Assembly (NCBI GenBank): GCA_041690595.1
Contig: JAWLHB010000023.1
Coordinates: 62,001-114,991 of the forward strand
DNA: 52,991 nucleotides
Reading direction: 5' to 3'
Source of the DNA: Lentisphaeria bacterium
GTDB taxonomy: Bacteria > Verrucomicrobiota > Lentisphaeria > JABSQK01 > JAWLHB01
A model generated the notes under the pieces. It worked only from the letters and a program-made list of their open reading frames with translations, ran no database searches and had not been told where the DNA came from. Of the stretch, positions 41,857-52,991 are shown piece by piece. The stretch's first letter is position 1. Each line of letters starts with the position of its first letter. The position numbers and the translations under genes are program-made.

Positions 41857-41993
41857 TGTGCATCACTTCCATCATGAGACGAAATTTGGAATGAATTGAT
41901 ATGGAGGTTTCGTAGGTTAATGTATGCACTGGTGAGGCAGAAACAGTCGATTTTTCATTATGAACGACGGATATTCAGGTGCAGGAAAAGGAC

Positions 41994-43436
41994 ATGAGTA
42001 GCGACGGCCCCGGCAACAGGCAGATCGAGAAGATCGCCACGGAGATTCGTGGCTTTGACGAGATCCTGTGCGGCGGCCTCCCGGCGGGCAGGATGACCAT
42101 GATCAATGGCGGGGCCGGGACCGGAAAGACCCTTCTGGCCATGGAGTTTCTCTATCGCCAGGCCCAGAAGGGGAGGCACGGCGTCTTTGTCAGTTTCGAG
42201 GAGCGCGCCGATGACCTGCGACTGAACGCCCAGTCGATGGGCTATGATGTCGCCAGACTGGAAGCCGAAGGCAGCCTTGCGATTGTCCATGCACCGGCCC
42301 CATACCAGGCGCTCAAAGCAGGCGACTTCAACCTCACAGGCATGCTCGCCATACTCGAGGGCCACATGCGGCGCATTAAGGCCAAGCTTCTGGTTCTCGA
42401 TGCCATCGATGTCGTCACTCAGCTCTTTGGCGACGAAGAGCTCGAACGGATTCACCTCCAGGATTTTCTGGCAAAGTTACGCGATCGCGGGCTGACCGTC
42501 CTGCTGACGGTGAAGGCCCTCGCGCCGGGTGTGCGGGAGTACCCCTTCCTGGAGTTCCTGAGCGACTGCGTCATTCTGCTGGACCAGCGCGTCAAGGAGC
42601 AGATCCGCACCCGCCGCCTGCATGTGTTGAAGTACCGGGGATCCAACTTTCTGCCGAATGAGTATCCCTATGTGATTGCGAACCATGGCATGGTGATGCT
42701 GCCGATTTCAACCGTGAAATTGGACGAGCATGTCACCACGGAACGTATCGGCTTCGACATTGAAACCCTCGATGCGATGCTGCAGGGCGGCCTTCTTGCC
42801 GGCAGCGGCATCCTGCTGAGCGGACCGAGTGGATCCGGCAAAACCACCATTGCCTGCGCCTTTGCCCGCGCCGCCTGCAAACCAGACCACAAGGTCCTCT
42901 ACGTCAGCTTTGAACAGGGCGAGGCGGACCTCTGTCAGGCCATGCGCAGCTGTGGATTGAGCCTCGATGACGTCGTCGCCAGCGGAAACCTGCACATTCA
43001 CTCGACCATGCCCGAGTCCAACGGCATCGAAGAGCACCTCGTCCAGATTCTCGACCTGATGGATTCGCTCCATCCACGATGCCTGATTGTCGATGCCGTT
43101 TCCGCCATTGGCCGTATGGGATCGCCCGAACGGGTCACTAGTTTCATCGTGCGCCTTCTGGCCCAATGCCGGCCGCGCAGGATTACCTGTATGCTCACCG
43201 ACCAACGCGGCGGCACGGAAGCCAATGCGCTTCAGGTAAGCGCCACCAATGTCGCCTCCCTTGTCGATGCCTGCATCTGCCTTCTCTTCGTGGATGACAG
43301 ACAGCACATCCAGCGACGGATCTTCATCCTCAAGATGCGAGGCAGCAAGCACAGTCACTACTATCACAGTTTCGACATCTATGACGACGGCATCAGAGTC
43401 AACCGACTGGAAAGCGTCTCACCATCTGAAACCTGA
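41994..43436 (+). CDS. kaiC: KaiC-family double-domain ATPase
   Basis: Two RecA domains: GGAGTGKT/SFEE/KYRGS and GPSGSGKT/SFEQ/KMRGS; adjacent kaiB. Confidence 0.92.
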   Translation: MSSDGPGNRQIEKIATEIRGFDEILCGGLPAGRMTMINGGAGTGKTLLAMEFLYRQAQKGRHGVFVSFEERADDLRLNAQSMGYDVARLEAEGSLAIVHAPAPYQALKAGDFNLTGMLAILEGHMRRIKAKLLVLDAIDVVTQLFGDEELERIHLQDFLAKLRDRGLTVLLTVKALAPGVREYPFLEFLSDCVILLDQRVKEQIRTRRLHVLKYRGSNFLPNEYPYVIANHGMVMLPISTVKLDEHVTTERIGFDIETLDAMLQGGLLAGSGILLSGPSGSGKTTIACAFARAACKPDHKVLYVSFEQGEADLCQAMRSCGLSLDDVVASGNLHIHSTMPESNGIEEHLVQILDLMDSLHPRCLIVDAVSAIGRMGSPERVTSFIVRLLAQCRPRRITCMLTDQRGGTEANALQVSATNVASLVDACICLLFVDDRQHIQRRIFILKMRGSKHSHYYHSFDIYDDGIRVNRLESVSPSET

Positions 43437-43464
43437 GAGCGGCGGCGCCGTTAGTAAAGACACC

Positions 43465-43770
43465 ATGAACAAAGACGAACAACCCAAGTACTCTTTCCTG
43501 TTGTTTGTGGCCAGTGGGGAAGCCAATTCCCTTCTGGCTGAACAGAACCTGCGACGCCTCATCGACGACCATCTTGCCGGCCACAGCGATCTGCAAGTAA
43601 TCGACGTCTTTCAGGAAGTAGATAGCGCGATCAACCACAACATTCTCGTAACTCCTTGCCTGATTGTTCGACGCCCGTTGCCGCAAGTCATGCTCGTCGG
43701 CAACTTGAGCGACAAGAAGCAAGTGCTGACCGCCCTGCGCCTGTCGGCTGGAGGCCCCAGTGAACCCTGA
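43465..43770 (+). CDS. kaiB: KaiB-family protein
   Basis: FLLFVASGEANSLLAEQNL, LQVIDV, ILVTPCL, PLP, VGNLSD; the C-terminal half aligns without gaps to cyanobacterial KaiB. Confidence 0.92.
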   Translation: MNKDEQPKYSFLLFVASGEANSLLAEQNLRRLIDDHLAGHSDLQVIDVFQEVDSAINHNILVTPCLIVRRPLPQVMLVGNLSDKKQVLTALRLSAGGPSEP

Positions 43771-45829
43771 AGAACTGCCGGGAACCGCACCCGAACAGCC
43801 GACCGAAGAGATCCTCAGAGCTCTGAAAGCCGGTGAGATCGACGCGGTGATTGGCCATAGTCAATTGCGGTTGCTGCGCCTCCATGAGGTGGAGCAGGCA
43901 CTGCGACAGAGCGAAGCCCGATACCGGGGCATCGTCGAAGATGCCGCGGAACTGATCTGCCGGTGGAACAGCGACTATAACCTGACTTTCGTCAATCACA
44001 CCTTCTGCGAGTTCTTCGGAGGATCCGTTGCCGATCATATCGGCGCGCCGCTGCTGAACTACCTTGGCAGCTGCGAGCAGGAGAGAGCCGCGGCCCACTT
44101 GCGACTGGTGGCACTCGACCAGCCCCCCGCGTATTTTGACCAGCGTTGTTTTGCGCAAGGCGAGCGGCGCTGGATTGCGTGGACAAGCCGTGCCCTGCCC
44201 AGTCAGGATACGGGATGGGAAGGACAGTCGATCGGCCATGATGTCTCCCAGCGCTGGCGTATGGAAGAAGCGCATGTGGTGCGCGAGGCGCTGCTGACCA
44301 GTGCGGAGCAACAGGCCGGCCTGGGTAGTTGGCAACTGGACCTGAAAACGGGTCAGATAGTTCAGTCTGAGCAACTGATGCGCATGCTTGCGGTGGACGA
44401 GATCATCGGCTGGAAGGAACTGCTGCCATGCATACATGCGGATGATCGTGAAGACTTCCGGAAGGCCGTGACTGCCTGCATGGAGAATGGCGAACCCTAC
44501 GCGGTGGAAGTACGGATACACAGCAACGATGGCCAGTGTCACCGTTGGATGCGCGCTCAGGGCCAGGCTTTCCGAGACAGCGCCAACTCCATCGACCGGG
44601 TTATCGGTACCCTGCTCGACATCCATGACAGCCGCAAAGTCAAACAGTCTCTCGAACGAAGCCGGAAAGAACTGGAGGAGCGGGTACGCGAACGTACCAT
44701 TGAACTCGAATCGCGCGCCGATCAACTGGCTCATCTGGCGGCAGAATTGACCCTGGCCGAACAGCGTGAGCGTGGTCGCCTCTCCGAAATGCTGCACGAC
44801 GACCTGCAGCAGATCCTGGTCAGCGCTGGTTTCCATCTCGATCTGGCATCGCGCAATCCTGGTCTGGATCCGCGGGTGCAGGAGCTGCTCGAACAGACAA
44901 GGGGAATGCTGAACGATGCCGTCTCCAAATCGCGAAACCTGTCGCATGAGCTGGCCCCCCCCACCCTGCGCGAGCGAGGTTTGCTCTCGGCGATTCAATG
45001 GCTGAGCAAGAGGATGGAGGAGAGTCATCACCTGCACATCGACCTCGACCTCGACCGGCGGGCGGAGCCCCAATCGGAAGCGACGCGTGTCCTGCTCTAC
45101 AAGTGTATCCACGAGCTGCTCTTCAACACCGTCAAGCATGCGAACACTCAGCGCGCCCAGGTTACCATGAGCCGGGAAGGAATCGAATTGCGAGTGATCG
45201 TCCGGGACGAAGGCGTCGGCTTCGATGCGCAGGCAGCCATGACTCAGGACGGCGAGGGCGGCTTCGGCCTCTCCAGCATCCATGAACGTATCCGCCTTCT
45301 GGGTGGCTCCTTCTTCGTTGAGAGCCGCATCGGCCACGGTAGCCGCTTCGAACTTCTGGTGCCGGATCGCCATGGAACGGAGACCGTCGCCCAGCTGTAT
45401 CGCAACCAGGAAGAAACCGTCCAGCTTCGCCGCCAGGACTTCAAGCCCGTTGCCGCCACCGAGTTGGTCCATATCCTCCTTGTCGACGATCACAAGGTGA
45501 TGCGGCAGGGGCTGGCAGCACTCCTGGCGGAAGCGGATGGCATGCAGATCGTCGGCGAAGCCGGTAGCGGCGCTGAAGCCATCGTTCGAGCGGGGGAACT
45601 CAAGCCGGAAGTCATCCTGATGGATATTTCGATGCCTGACATGAATGGCATCGAGGCAACAAGAGCCATCAAGCAGCGGTGGCCAGACATCACCGTTATC
45701 GGCTTGTCGATGCATGACGAACCGAGCCTCTATCAGGAGATGAAACGCGCCGGCGCCCACGCCTGCATGAGCAAGGCCTTGGCTTCCGAAGATCTCTTTG
45801 ACGTGATCCACAAGTGTCGCGGTGCATGA
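43760..45829 (+). CDS. Hybrid sensor kinase: 2 PAS + HisKA_3 + HATPase + receiver
   Basis: PAS repeats ([16 protein letters not shown]), [16 protein letters not shown]-box, [30 protein letters not shown]...[12 protein letters not shown]; no TM segments seen. Confidence 0.93.
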
Positions 45830-45876: not shown

Positions 45877-48800
45877 ATGCTACGGAACCTCGCTCTTATT
45901 GTCACACTCTTTGGAATCTTCACCGCCGCGGCCGCCCCCCACGTGGTAACCTTGCGCGATTACCTGGGACGAAACTGGGATGATGAGCTGGTGCATGATC
46001 GGCTCGCCTTTTCTCCAGGTGAACTTTCGGTCCCGAGAGCGGCGGTAACCCTGAAACCGGGCGGAGCGGTGCCCGCGCAGGTCAGCGATGTCGAGTACCA
46101 CGACGATGGGTCGATTGCCGCCATGAAAGTCTGGTTCAAGGTGACACTATTGGCCGGTGCAACAATCGAAGCGACCATTCAGCCCGGTGCCAGCGGACCT
46201 GCCGATTCAACACTTCGCGTGCAGGAAAGCGCGGACCACCTCGAGTTGACGACGCAGAGCAGCGATGGCCGCATCGGCGTGCGGCTTCCCCGAATCGACC
46301 GCACCTGGAATTGGCCAGCTCAAGCGCAAGACGTTGCCGCTCCTCTCGAGGCCGTGCTCGTCCCATCCGGGCGGTGGGTCGGCAAGGGACGCCTTGAAGT
46401 CCCTTTCACCGTCAAGTCCTGTCGCTCCGAAATTCTGGCGAATGGCCCCCTTTTCGCGGAAGCGCGGGTGACCTACACCTTCGACACCGGCTACTGGACC
46501 TTCACCGCACGCCTGATCGATGGCGCCCCCATGGCCATTGTCCGGGAAGAGCTGGATACTGGCTTCAATCATGACCAGGCGTGGGATGAGGTGGATCGTT
46601 ACTTCACCTTTGCCTTCACCGACGGGACCTTCGCGCCAGACCAGGTCTTCTACGGATCGGCGACCAACGATCAACCCCACCTGGAAACACTCCTGAAAGG
46701 TGGGATGCCGGAGATCGTCAAGACCGTCAACATCCGCGGCAACTGGTTTGCATCCACCGTTCGCGGTTACGAACTGAACCTGGACAAACCGGAAGAGCAA
46801 TTCTACTTCAGCGGGTACCAGAGCGTCCTGAATCGGATCGGCGGCGCCATTCGAGTCATGGAGTCAGGAGGGGACGCGATCGGCTTTGCCGCACTGGATA
46901 CCGCCTGGTGGCGCAACGCCATGAGCCTGCGCTTTCGGGTCACCGACGACAGAGAGTTCGTGGTCAGTATGCCGCTCCAAGTCTACAATCAGGAGTGGTC
47001 CGTGGATGGCTACGGTCGCAACAGCCCGAACTATACGGGAAAGACCCAGTTCGTGCCCGAGACCACCGCGCGCCGCACCTATGGCATCATGCTCAGCAAG
47101 GCCGAGAACGAGGTCGAATCGCTCCTCCTTTCGCTGACGACGCAAGGCTCCAAACTTGGGGCGTTTCCGCTGGACAACGTAAAGGAATGGCAATTCGAGA
47201 TCGCCGATCCCATGGCGGATGCCGAGTGGGCCGCGGAAACCCAGACGGAGGCGGCGGAGATCCTGCAGACCATGCGCAACCGCATCGAGCTCCGTCGTCA
47301 GTTGGGTAACCTGGCCGAGTTCTCCATGGGCTACCACTATGGCTATGCGAAGGGGCGCTGGAGCAAGATCAAGGATACTATTGATGACCCCACCAAGCTG
47401 ACGGCGGAGGATCGGGCCGAGATGCGCCGTCTGGCAATCTTCGATGCTTACGATCAGAACAGCATGAACACCTTCCCCTGGGGCACCGGTTTCCACCTGA
47501 ACAACCCCAATATGTCGATCATGGCTCTGGAGGCGCGAGTCAAGTCCAGCCTTCCCGTCAAGGATCACCCCATGTTTGCCGAATGGGGAGAGTGGAGCCT
47601 CGAATTCCTGAAAGATTACATCCGCCGCTTCACCTTCGACTCCGGCGCCCTTTACGAAAACGTCCACTATTCCGTGGGCGTAACCCTTTCGTGGGCCGCA
47701 CAGGTCAACCAGATCCTCATGGACGCCGGCATCGGCGATGGCTTCGATACCGACCTGTTCAAGCGCTCCATGCGCTTTACCCTCGACTGGCTGACGCCCC
47801 CGGATCCGCGCTTTCTCGGCCATCGCGTCGCCATACCCTTCGGCAACTCCTCCTACCAATCCTTCCCGCCCGACTTTGCGAACCAGTTTGTGGGCTACTA
47901 CAAGGATCGTGATCCCGAACTGGCTGGCAAGCTGCAGTGGGCCGCCAACCAGACTCTGCCGGAAGACAAGCAGGTGAGCATCGTCGAAGAGGTCATACCC
48001 AAGCTGGAGAGTGTCCACTACGGCAACTATGGCGTTACCTTCCGCCACGGATTCGGCACTCCGTACGAGACGATGTTCGCGATGCTGGCCGGCGATTGCC
48101 ATGGGCACTATGAATGGGAGCAAGACCAGATGAGCTACACGCTCTATGCCAAGGGGCAGCCCATCAACCTGCACTTCGGTAACGGCTATTTCCCCATGTT
48201 CGGCCGAAGCTGGCTGAGAAATCGCGTCAGCATCGACATGTCCTACGAGAAATCCGAGCGTAATCCAACCCAAGTGATGACCGCCAGCTTCACCCCCGAG
48301 GCCGAGTACCTGCGCGCCTCACGCGGCATCGACATGCTGCGCAAGCTCGAAACCGAGTACCCCCTTCTCAACGCCAAGGGCGCCTGGTCCGACGACGAAA
48401 AGAAGAGCTGGCCCGCGGTGCCCGAATGGACGGAGATCCCGATGACGCTCTGGTACCGCCAGGTGATCTTCATGAAGGATGCCGATCCGCGCGGCCCCAA
48501 CTATTTCGTCATTCGAGACGGCTTCGGCGGCACACCGACCCGGCCCACCGAGGTCTCCTACTGGATGCTCTCCAAAGAAATGCAGCAGGAGGGAGATCTC
48601 TTCCACTTCGAGGGGCAGGCCGACGTCAATATGGATCTCTTCCTGCACACGCCTCAGGGGCAAGCGCCGGAGACCGGCGAGCACAGCCACGTCCAACAGC
48701 CTTATGTCCGCCTCGTGGGCTTCGATCCGGCCTATCACCCCGACGGCAAACTGCAGGAACGGCAGCAACTCATCCGCTGGCGCCAGGAGCCGGGCGACGG

Positions 48801-49152
48801 TTACATGGTCGTCCTCTACCCGCGCCTGAAGGAGAACGATCCCCCCGCCACCTTCACACGCCTCGCCGACAGCGCCGTCAGGATAGAGACGCCCCTCAGC
48901 ACCGATTACGTCTTTCTCGCCCCCCACCCTTTCGACTACGCGGATGATCGCGTCGCCTTCAGCGGTCTTGGCGGTTCCATTCGCTTCTACAAGGACGGCA
49001 GGACCGTCATCGTCAATACCGACGGCGATGCCAGCTTTGCGGTCGACGGCAAACGATGGAGCGGCACGGGCGCCTTCATGATCACCCTGGCCGACGGCAA
49101 GGCCGCCAGCACGCTGCATGGCGAAGGGGCCTCCGTCCAGGCGGAAGAGTAG
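45877..49152 (+). CDS. Large secreted protein, heparinase II/III-like C-terminal region
   Basis: Signal peptide MLRNLALIVTLFGIFTAAAA; SGALYENVHY; PFGNS; GVTFRHG...HGHYEWEQDQMSYTLYAKGQP; WYRQVIF; NYFVIRD. Confidence 0.6.
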   Translation: MLRNLALIVTLFGIFTAAAAPHVVTLRDYLGRNWDDELVHDRLAFSPGELSVPRAAVTLKPGGAVPAQVSDVEYHDDGSIAAMKVWFKVTLLAGATIEATIQPGASGPADSTLRVQESADHLELTTQSSDGRIGVRLPRIDRTWNWPAQAQDVAAPLEAVLVPSGRWVGKGRLEVPFTVKSCRSEILANGPLFAEARVTYTFDTGYWTFTARLIDGAPMAIVREELDTGFNHDQAWDEVDRYFTFAFTDGTFAPDQVFYGSATNDQPHLETLLKGGMPEIVKTVNIRGNWFASTVRGYELNLDKPEEQFYFSGYQSVLNRIGGAIRVMESGGDAIGFAALDTAWWRNAMSLRFRVTDDREFVVSMPLQVYNQEWSVDGYGRNSPNYTGKTQFVPETTARRTYGIMLSKAENEVESLLLSLTTQGSKLGAFPLDNVKEWQFEIADPMADAEWAAETQTEAAEILQTMRNRIELRRQLGNLAEFSMGYHYGYAKGRWSKIKDTIDDPTKLTAEDRAEMRRLAIFDAYDQNSMNTFPWGTGFHLNNPNMSIMALEARVKSSLPVKDHPMFAEWGEWSLEFLKDYIRRFTFDSGALYENVHYSVGVTLSWAAQVNQILMDAGIGDGFDTDLFKRSMRFTLDWLTPPDPRFLGHRVAIPFGNSSYQSFPPDFANQFVGYYKDRDPELAGKLQWAANQTLPEDKQVSIVEEVIPKLESVHYGNYGVTFRHGFGTPYETMFAMLAGDCHGHYEWEQDQMSYTLYAKGQPINLHFGNGYFPMFGRSWLRNRVSIDMSYEKSERNPTQVMTASFTPEAEYLRASRGIDMLRKLETEYPLLNAKGAWSDDEKKSWPAVPEWTEIPMTLWYRQVIFMKDADPRGPNYFVIRDGFGGTPTRPTEVSYWMLSKEMQQEGDLFHFEGQADVNMDLFLHTPQGQAPETGEHSHVQQPYVRLVGFDPAYHPDGKLQERQQLIRWRQEPGDGYMVVLYPRLKENDPPATFTRLADSAVRIETPLSTDYVFLAPHPFDYADDRVAFSGLGGSIRFYKDGRTVIVNTDGDASFAVDGKRWSGTGAFMITLADGKAASTLHGEGASVQAEE

Positions 49153-52297: not shown

Positions 52298-52427
52298 ACA
52301 GGTACATTCCTCAGCCTGGGGACTGGTACATTCCCTCAGCCTGGGGACAGGTACTTCCCTCAGCCTGGGGACAGGTACTTCCCTCAGCCTGGGGACAGGT
52401 ACTTCCCTCAGCCTGGAAACAGGTAAC
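52298..52427. repeat. Tandem array of ~5.3 copies of a 24-bp unit
   Basis: ACAGGTACTTCCCTCAGCCTGGGG: exact at 52347-52370 and 52371-52394; variants at 52298, 52322 and 52395; partial at 52419. No spacers. Confidence 0.92.
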
Positions 52428-52595
52428 TTACTTGCTTGGTAGCTCTGTCGGTGGCTACAGTTGCGGCGTGCGGTACATCCTTATCTAGTTTCATCATAAT
52501 TGAGATACTAATCTACAGATTTCTTCTTTAAGATCTTGACAACAATGACTATGGCGGCAAGATTACGGCCATACCTACAACAAAGGGGAACAACG

Positions 52596-52991
52596 ATGCG
52601 AATGGCGCGGACGAAGCATCGGGGCGGGGGTTGCTACTATCATCTGACAAATCGAACGGCGGGTAGCGATAAGGACCGGCCCTTTGGCGATGTTGAGAAA
52701 CGGAAGTTCGAGAGTCAGGTGCATTCCTTGAGCAAGCTGTATTCACTGCAGCTCGTAAGTCTTTGCGTCATGTGCAATCATTTTCACCTCACACTTTTTG
52801 CTCCAGGCGAACCTCCGAGCCGGAAAGAAACTGCCCGCCGCTACAACAAATTCTACAAGGACAAGCACCCCATCACCGCCGACTCGCCCATCGCCGCCGA
52901 GCTGGCGCCGCGCCTCAACGACATCAGTTTCTTCATGCACGATCTGCAGCAGCGCTTCACGGTCTGGTTCAACAAGAGCCGCCCCATCCGG
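52596..52991 (+). CDS. HUH Y1 tyrosine transposase, RAYT/IS200-like (partial, runs off window end)
   Basis: Manual translation: MRMARTKHRGGGCYYHLTNR...LCVMCNHFHL (HUH motif)...LNDISFFMHDLQQRFTVWFNKSRPIR. Absent from the ORF track. Confidence 0.88.
   Translation, partial: MRMARTKHRGGGCYYHLTNRTAGSDKDRPFGDVEKRKFESQVHSLSKLYSLQLVSLCVMCNHFHLTLFAPGEPPSRKETARRYNKFYKDKHPITADSPIAAELAPRLNDISFFMHDLQQRFTVWFNKSRPIR

Follow-up and report, generated by a model that had tools for sequence, protein, structure and literature searches.

The kaiC-kaiB-kinase operon of a Lentisphaeria bacterium

The DNA analysed here (the window) is a stretch of 52,991 nucleotides from a Lentisphaeria bacterium (assembly GCA_041690595.1, contig JAWLHB010000023.1, positions 62,001–114,991 of the forward strand), which carries a kaiC-kaiB-histidine kinase operon and, at the N-terminus of the kinase, a short, apparently uncatalogued module linked to Kai proteins. 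All the features lie on the forward strand. The kaiC gene (41994–43436; ATG start, TGA stop and an AGGA ribosome-binding site [RBS]) encodes 480 amino acids (aa), has an in-frame GTG upstream of its ATG at 41979, and is separated by 28 nucleotides (nt) from kaiB (43465–43770; ATG start, TGA stop; 101 aa). The hybrid histidine kinase gene (43760–45829; GTG start, GGAGG RBS, TGA stop; 689 aa) overlaps kaiB by 11 nt, with its GTG inside the kaiB end. Its product contains two PAS domains assigned by Pfam (43919–44611; PAS at residues 54–151 and PAS_3 at 218–284), followed by the HisKA_3 and HATPase core (44768–45367; residues 337–403 and 444–536) and a receiver domain, REC (45473–45808; residues 572–683), both found by Pfam and by motifs. 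The coordinates and the Pfam/NCBIfam domains agreed with the original prediction, in which kaiC, a single kaiB and a soluble PAS-PAS-HisKA_3-HATPase-REC kinase form a tight operon.

The kinase has the phosphoacceptor His346, the N, G1 and G2 boxes and the receiver residues Asp622, Ser650 and Lys672, as known for hybrid HisKA_3 kinases of the NarX/UhpB type, and its NarL-type receiver is not followed by a DNA-binding domain. No membrane helix was found in the protein (the most hydrophobic 19-mer averages 0.88), and no LOV-type Cys motif was seen in either PAS domain. The absence of kaiA from the window was extended to the whole genome (8.1 Mb, 97.0% complete), a check that had been proposed earlier; PF07688 gave no match there, and the control was positive in Synechococcus. 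The host had been taken for a probable non-phototrophic member of the Planctomycetes-Verrucomicrobia-Chlamydiae (PVC) group, and the PVC signature protein TIGR04137 scored above its cut-off in this genome while the reaction-centre protein PF00124 was not found in it. No control of the rhodopsin search gave a match, which makes that search uninformative. The scan of the locus for promoters and terminators returned hits at chance level only. No RNA run was listed among the matching sequencing runs, and the DNA runs gave small shares only.

An apparently uncatalogued module opens the kinase

The segment encoded at 43793–43891 (kinase residues ~12–45; ~40 residues in the family), which is absent from the original prediction, has the consensus LxxRLxxAExIxxALxxxEVDAVVGxxxxxxLRLxE with an invariant Asp28. 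It is predicted to form a helix, a short hairpin and a helix; when folded alone it was not compact (pTM 0.36), and this model matched coiled coils only, with a best Z of 2.6 in the fold search. At most 4 of 65 members matched any one Pfam or NCBIfam family. The best PDB sequence match (E = 0.012) was to a short turn found in binding proteins, and the ESM Atlas returned unnamed clusters only (0.90, 191 members). The module of this kinase scored 48 bits and is the sole strong match in its genome, and a single match per genome was also the rule in 5 of 5 records tested. The same segment opens the kinases of Rhodobacter (Cereibacter) sphaeroides and Rhizobium; the R. sphaeroides kinase matched with E = 5.8e-12, a value to be read with the fact that this sequence is a row of the alignment.

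A search with a 60-column profile, which takes in some generic linker helix, recovered 904 clusters (E ≤ 1e-3; clustering at 50% identity). In 148 of the 150 listed proteins the start of the module lies among the first 25 residues, and among 29 proteins scanned it was the only constant part of the third gene. What follows it in these 29 proteins varies from HisKA, HisKA_2, HisKA_3 and HWE kinases to REC-LuxR and PAS-only proteins, and two kinases with the module have no PAS domain (L073 and L090). At one locus (L040, 9767–10570; also L107) the module is fused straight onto a REC-LuxR transcription factor behind kaiB. A 916-aa KaiB-module-PAS-HisKA-HATPase-REC fusion was also observed (P0273; four members, one contig), which could reflect a lost stop codon.

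The module follows kaiB across genomes

The neighbourhood survey proposed earlier was made on 80 loci, namely the best 80 of 214 from an alignment scan with one peptide pattern, which is a biased sample; a single-protein scan of the genome contigs had found nothing. The order kaiC-kaiB-module was present in 74 of these 80 KaiC-selected loci, a count that is partly circular as 39 of the 80 had built the module profile. Three of the six exceptions lie at contig edges, and in the others the module is cut by a stop (L070), kaiB is frameshifted (L025) or a deletion has occurred (L041).

In an independent test, the module profile was run over 1,104 genomes of four phyla, and only new matches at E ≤ 1e-5 were counted. 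Forty of the 46 new matches lay directly behind kaiB (18/22, 9/9, 8/8 and 5/7 in the four phylum samples). The module was found in 29 genomes of a 251-genome sample and KaiB in 28, with both in 23, the module alone in 6 (three of them weak, noise-like matches) and KaiB alone in 5; the genome-level Fisher p of 2e-22 is overstated, as related genomes are not independent. Six weaker matches in this sample had been excluded before counting: two behind kaiB (L127 and L131), two binding-protein-like turns (L128 and L129), an orphan kinase (L130) and a coil only (L132). L107 was left out as a repeat of L040, which is an alignment row. Furthermore, all 10 genomes of the sample that have a full-length KaiC-like gene and no kaiB lack the module, and it was found in none of 7 loci with kaiB-kaiC order. 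The coupling of the kinase to the Kai proteins that had been proposed earlier thus gains support at the sequence level, since the module travels with kaiB.

In cyanobacteria, kinases of the SasA/CikA type use an N-terminal or accessory domain to sense the state of KaiB-KaiC. The interaction of a module dimer with KaiB was modelled here, KaiC not being part of the input. The prediction scored 0.42 (0.64, 0.40 and 0.42 in the three runs) as compared with 0.06 for the best control; the contacts agreed by at least 75% between runs, and the pLDDT of the partner was at least 72. In the calibration, 116 of 157 solved pairs reached the mark, as did 2 of 215 mismatched ones; these counts are only rough, and scores up to 0.60 included 18 of the 157 solved pairs and both of the passing mismatches. 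The model weakly suggests that the module may bind KaiB, and in view of its position as well the module is probably the part that connects the kinase to the Kai proteins.

KaiB carries substitutions at the fold-switch positions

KaiB matched PF07689 with 48.3 bits (cut-off 27) and stayed below the cut-off of TIGR02654, the cyanobacterial-type model. Its Ala90 and Arg92 align with Gly89 and Asp91 of T. elongatus, and Thr63-Pro64 is kept. The T. elongatus substitutions G89A and D91R are reported to push KaiB toward the fold-switched state (PMC11665890), and the counterpart of Ala90 is the site of the R. sphaeroides fold-switch mutation N84A (PMC10808063). Ala occupies this position in 60 of 65 KaiBs of the lineage and Gly in none, whereas in module operons of the R. 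sphaeroides type 44 of 48 KaiBs have Gly there. The AlphaFold2 model of KaiB showed the thioredoxin-like order of elements (pLDDT 85.5), and its best structural matches were the fold-switched KaiBs 5JWR, 8FWJ and 4KUN, with a root-mean-square deviation of 1.2 Å to 5jwr_B. KaiB is predicted to be fold-switched, and for this the contrast in Gly content (0/65 versus 44/48) is a stronger point than the model alone. The Legionella KaiB Lpp1115 (PDB 4KUN), which is natively fold-switched, has Ala at the same position, and Legionella KaiB has been reported as stress-related and not circadian (PMC10808063).

KaiC lacks a tail and is drifting in CII

KaiC matched PF06745 twice and NF006799 with 445.7 bits (cut-off 408), and missed the cut-off of the cyanobacterial TIGR02655 (261.9 against 546 bits). 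In CI, the Walker A and B motifs, Glu69-Glu70, the arginine finger and the B-loop are all intact. CII has intact Walker A and B motifs and arginine finger, with Glu307-Gln308 at the catalytic pair and Ala421-Ser422 at the phosphosite pair; these align with Glu302-Glu303 and Ser413-Ser414 of R. sphaeroides KaiC. The chain stops 34 residues past Lys447 without a coiled-coil or KaiA-binding tail; residue 467 aligns to residue 477 of the 519-aa protein used in testing for the KaiC1 A-loop and tail, and the chain ends at 480.

How far these changes are general was seen from the 120 best homologues, which have 40–50% identity to this KaiC. The CI motifs are invariant among them, and so are the CII Walker motifs, Glu307 and the arginine finger. 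Ser occupies the second phosphosite in 119 of the 120; at the first, 106 have Ser and 11 have Ala. The second CII Glu is conserved in 96 and replaced by Gln in 12, and the phosphosite Ala and the Glu-to-Gln change occur together in four. A short C-terminal tail was found in 101 homologues, and 18 have at least 100 residues after the Lys447 position. By these counts the loss of the tail is lineage-wide, and the phosphosite and Glu-to-Gln changes are mostly private to this KaiC and may represent decay of CII and not design. Of the 66 conserved CII columns, 15 deviate from the consensus in this KaiC (5.1 ± 2.4 in the others, with a maximum of 14; none of 119 as high) as compared with 8 of 82 conserved CI columns (32 of 119 others as high), a difference with Fisher p = 0.04, so the CII half of this KaiC is drifting as judged from its sequence. 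It had been claimed that both Kai proteins carry changes removing the delay elements of the cyanobacterial oscillator. This claim is supported for KaiB, with Ala90, Arg92 and the fold-switched model, and for the KaiC tail; it is weakened for the first phosphosite and the Glu change, which are rare in the lineage (11/120 and 12/120).

The KaiC phylogeny, another check proposed earlier, was inferred with IQ-TREE from 39 of the 81 rows of a FastTree run, without cyanobacterial or Synechocystis references. Four groups were resolved: KaiC-only genes; a Ser-Thr type with kaiB-kaiC order; the R. sphaeroides type (100/99), which includes a second KaiC of this genome on contig C48; and a separate lineage that contains the KaiC studied here (98/98). 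With the KaiC-only genes as the assumed root, this lineage is sister to the Ser-Thr and R. sphaeroides groups together (96/89). An ancestral tail was probably lost within the lineage, because long-tailed members lie near its base. KaiC was present in only 1 of the 40 nearest relatives, as a copy of the Ser-Thr group, and the nearest homologues belong to Planctomycetota, Desulfobacterota and others; this distribution would fit lateral transfer.

Comparison with known Kai systems

A kaiC-kaiB pair followed either by a histidine kinase or by a GGDEF/EAL protein in non-cyanobacteria was described as the first kaiC context by De Luca et al. (2011; PMC3164672), and a kaiC-kaiB-PAS/histidine kinase operon is known from Rhodopseudomonas palustris (PMC4794148). 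The locus belongs to this context, with clustered kaiC and kaiB, a signalling gene directly downstream and no kaiA. It does not belong to the second one, the kaiB-less kaiC-Nt_HK arrangement, as kaiB is present and Pfam gave no receiver match at the kinase N-terminus. The original prediction, which noted that kaiBC loci next to kinases exist outside the cyanobacteria, had overstated the arrangement in so far as this order is already known from R. sphaeroides and R. palustris (PMC3164672, PMC4794148). The text of De Luca et al. defines an N-terminal consensus, which is receiver-like, only for kinases of the kaiB-less context and not for those linked to kaiB; in their Fig. S6 a region of some kinases bears the label "Nt", which may bear on priority (PMC3164672). 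No description of the module was found in the literature searched, a search whose scope excluded subscription papers, figures and supplements. What is new here is the module together with the lineage-wide loss of the KaiC tail and of the fold-switch Gly, and the operon itself is of a known kind.

The closest studied system is that of R. sphaeroides (PDB 8DBA, 8FWJ), which shares the kaiC-kaiB-kinase order (plasmid record), the single kaiB, the lack of KaiA, the N-terminal module and a double-domain KaiC with B-loop. Unlike R. sphaeroides, the operon described here has a KaiC of a separate clade with 34 and not 128 residues after the CII arginine-finger motif, Ala-Ser in place of Ser413-Ser414 and Glu-Gln in place of Glu302-Glu303, Ala at the KaiB N84A position, a HisKA_3-REC kinase in place of an HWE kinase, and a non-phototrophic host. 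By phosphosites, coiled-coil extension and clade it therefore does not fall into the KaiC2 or R. sphaeroides type. The KaiC and KaiB folds are shared with cyanobacterial KaiABC and with KaiA3B3C3, from which the operon differs in the absence of KaiA, the reversed gene order and a module that is neither thioredoxin-like nor a receiver. It is also not of the KaiC1 type, having no KaiA, Ala421-Ser422 for Ser-Thr and no A-loop or KaiA-binding tail. A profile of helical C-termini found upstream of other kai loci, used for a KaiA3-type partner, had no match in the genome and is itself only weakly KaiA-like (E = 0.34–0.59).

A possible ATP/ADP switch and its alternatives

We give about an even chance to a three-protein switch that would read out ATP/ADP with little built-in delay and would not be a 24-h oscillator. 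KaiC would form a hexamer, with a CI ring that hydrolyses ATP as its intact motifs suggest. KaiB, predicted to rest at or near the fold-switched state, would bind the ADP-bound CI ring without slow refolding. This rule is borrowed by analogy from R. sphaeroides, where KaiB binds the post-hydrolysis, ADP-state CI ring whatever the phosphorylation state (PMC10076222). CII phosphorylation, with one site, one catalytic Glu and no regulatory tail, would be minor or vestigial. The module, which occurs with kaiB and is weakly predicted to bind its product, would dock on KaiB and probably on KaiC-held KaiB. The signal would then travel along a continuous helix that crosses the PAS domains and reaches the kinase core, and the phosphate would move from His346 to Asp622 and/or to an unlinked NarL-type regulator, for which the two REC-LuxR regulators on C49 and C24 of the genome are candidates. 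A switch responsive to ATP/ADP or to stress had been proposed in the original prediction; the ATP/ADP form is still favoured here, and nothing observed bears on a response to stress. The ATP/ADP idea itself is not new, ATP/ADP-controlled KaiB binding having been shown for R. sphaeroides (PMC10076222).

Several observations weigh against this switch. A complex score of 0.42 falls in a range that is more often wrong than right unless the pair is likely beforehand, and it gives no interface. The co-occurrence cannot separate binding to KaiB, to KaiC or to the KaiB-KaiC junction. Five of the 46 module matches have no kaiB within 1.5 kb and one more lies at a contig edge, and kaiC-kaiB occurs without the module at the C48 locus, at L134 and L135 and at a second locus of L136. 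The module of this kinase is shortened, the first two turns of its leading coiled coil being gone, and this KaiC is the longest end branch of its subclade (0.96). AlphaFold2 favours the fold-switched form of KaiB, so its model does not prove the resting state. On the output side, the genome holds 20 HisKA_3 matches and 3 LuxR-type HTH proteins, and besides this kinase 13 others (14 in all) end in a similar NarL-type receiver.

An hourglass timer like that of R. sphaeroides KaiBC, which is reset by ATP/ADP (PMC10076222), would use Ser422 phosphorylation and ATP turnover for an hours-long delay and the same module for readout. The gene order and module shared with R. sphaeroides speak for it, as do the phosphosites of the lineage (first Ser in 106 and second in 119 of 120) and the invariant CII Walker motifs, Glu307 and arginine finger, which indicate that CII is under selection across the lineage. 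The coiled-coil tail that speeds dephosphorylation in R. sphaeroides (PMC10076222) is, however, absent here, the fold-switch Gly of KaiB is lost, this KaiC is short of one phosphosite and one Glu, and no reaction centre was found that would impose a daily ATP/ADP swing. We consider the hourglass improbable, and the switch likelier, because the features known to cause delay are absent: the tail is gone, KaiB is predicted to be pre-switched and CII drifts. Somewhat lower still we place the view that the module binds KaiC or only a KaiB-KaiC composite surface, or that the kinase is an input passing PAS-sensed redox or oxygen to KaiBC. A redox input has been suggested for the R. sphaeroides kinase (PMC5520375, PMC10931921), at L105/L137 the module is retained next to a fragment of kaiC, with kaiB missing, and the complex was predicted without KaiC. 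The absence of the module from all 10 KaiC-only genomes and the weak predicted contact with KaiB do not favour docking on KaiC, and the direct fusion of the module to a transcription factor and to kinases that have no sensor domain makes an output role likelier than an input one.

The least probable of these readings is that the operon arrived by lateral transfer and is at an early stage of decay, with relaxed selection on KaiC and the kinase now acting alone. It would account for the CII departures that no other homologue reaches while CI stays within the common range, for a KaiC present in a single near relative and of another clade there, and for the frameshifted kaiB beside a transposase remnant at the second locus, and broken loci and orphan modules are seen elsewhere. 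Three intact frames with their RBSs and the 11-nt overlap, the intact CI and kinase motifs, drift that is confined to CII and a module of 48 bits all speak against it.

For the way in which KaiBC systems outside the cyanobacteria pass on their state, R. sphaeroides with its solved timer included, the module offers a concrete 40-residue candidate with one invariant residue. Taken together, and with more doubt than for the switch itself, the module might be a general KaiB-reading domain that supplies the output link so far missing from KaiBC systems outside the cyanobacteria, the R. sphaeroides hourglass among them. Because it occurs to either side of the deepest divergence of the kaiB-linked KaiCs in the tree, it may even be an ancestral output later replaced by KaiA/CikA/SasA-type partners. 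This lineage would then have shed the timer parts (tail and fold switch), with KaiBC retained as a portable sensor of energy charge that could be coupled to any kinase or transcription factor. With a fold-locked KaiB and a tail-less KaiC, it would provide a natural no-delay control for what makes an ATP/ADP sensor a timer.

Other kai arrangements and neighbouring genes

The second kaiC-kaiB-kinase locus of the genome (G000, C48, 57482–63242; L010), which the original prediction did not include, has a tail-less KaiC of the R. sphaeroides-type clade and a kaiB split near 59165 by a frameshift that is either real or due to misassembly. Its kinase is a multi-PAS/GAF HisKA-REC protein of 1,303 aa that lacks the module, and a remnant of a DDE transposase lies just upstream of the locus. 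In 24 Planctomycetota loci (L033, L035, L037 and 21 more), kaiC-kaiB is followed by a module-PAS protein without kinase and by mpsC. An MpsC-family gene (PF10057) is present in 24 of the 80 loci, often with a second copy upstream, and in 21 of them it directly follows the PAS gene. None was found in this genome; the output of these loci may be MpsC and not a kinase. R. sphaeroides-type module operons (L110, L113, L118 and others) often have two or three kaiB copies, of which the kinase-adjacent one carries a distinct D-I/L-Y-Q-Q-P motif.

Receiver/PAS proteins with a common helical C-terminus were observed upstream of kaiB-kaiC at six loci (L012, 3655–4380; L136, L140, L141, L143 and L144). 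They belong to Ser-Thr clade loci of non-cyanobacteria, one of which is a relative from the same order, and are absent from all module loci L014–L096. From the weak likeness of this C-terminus to that of KaiA, they are candidate KaiA3-like proteins missed by Pfam.

The upstream genes lon and EEP occur in 2 and in none of the 80 loci, respectively; they are not conserved neighbours, so they were not taken as a link to stress. The large gene 3′ of the kinase (45877–49152) belongs to a family with 19 members in the genome and is unrelated to the operon; it encodes a 1,091-aa secreted-looking protein without a Pfam match, and its closest Atlas clusters are unnamed or heparinase II/III-like. At the contig end, the start of an IS200/REP-associated-type transposase was found at 52536–52991 (PF01797, E = 0.007), with short tandem repeats ahead of it near 52330–52430.

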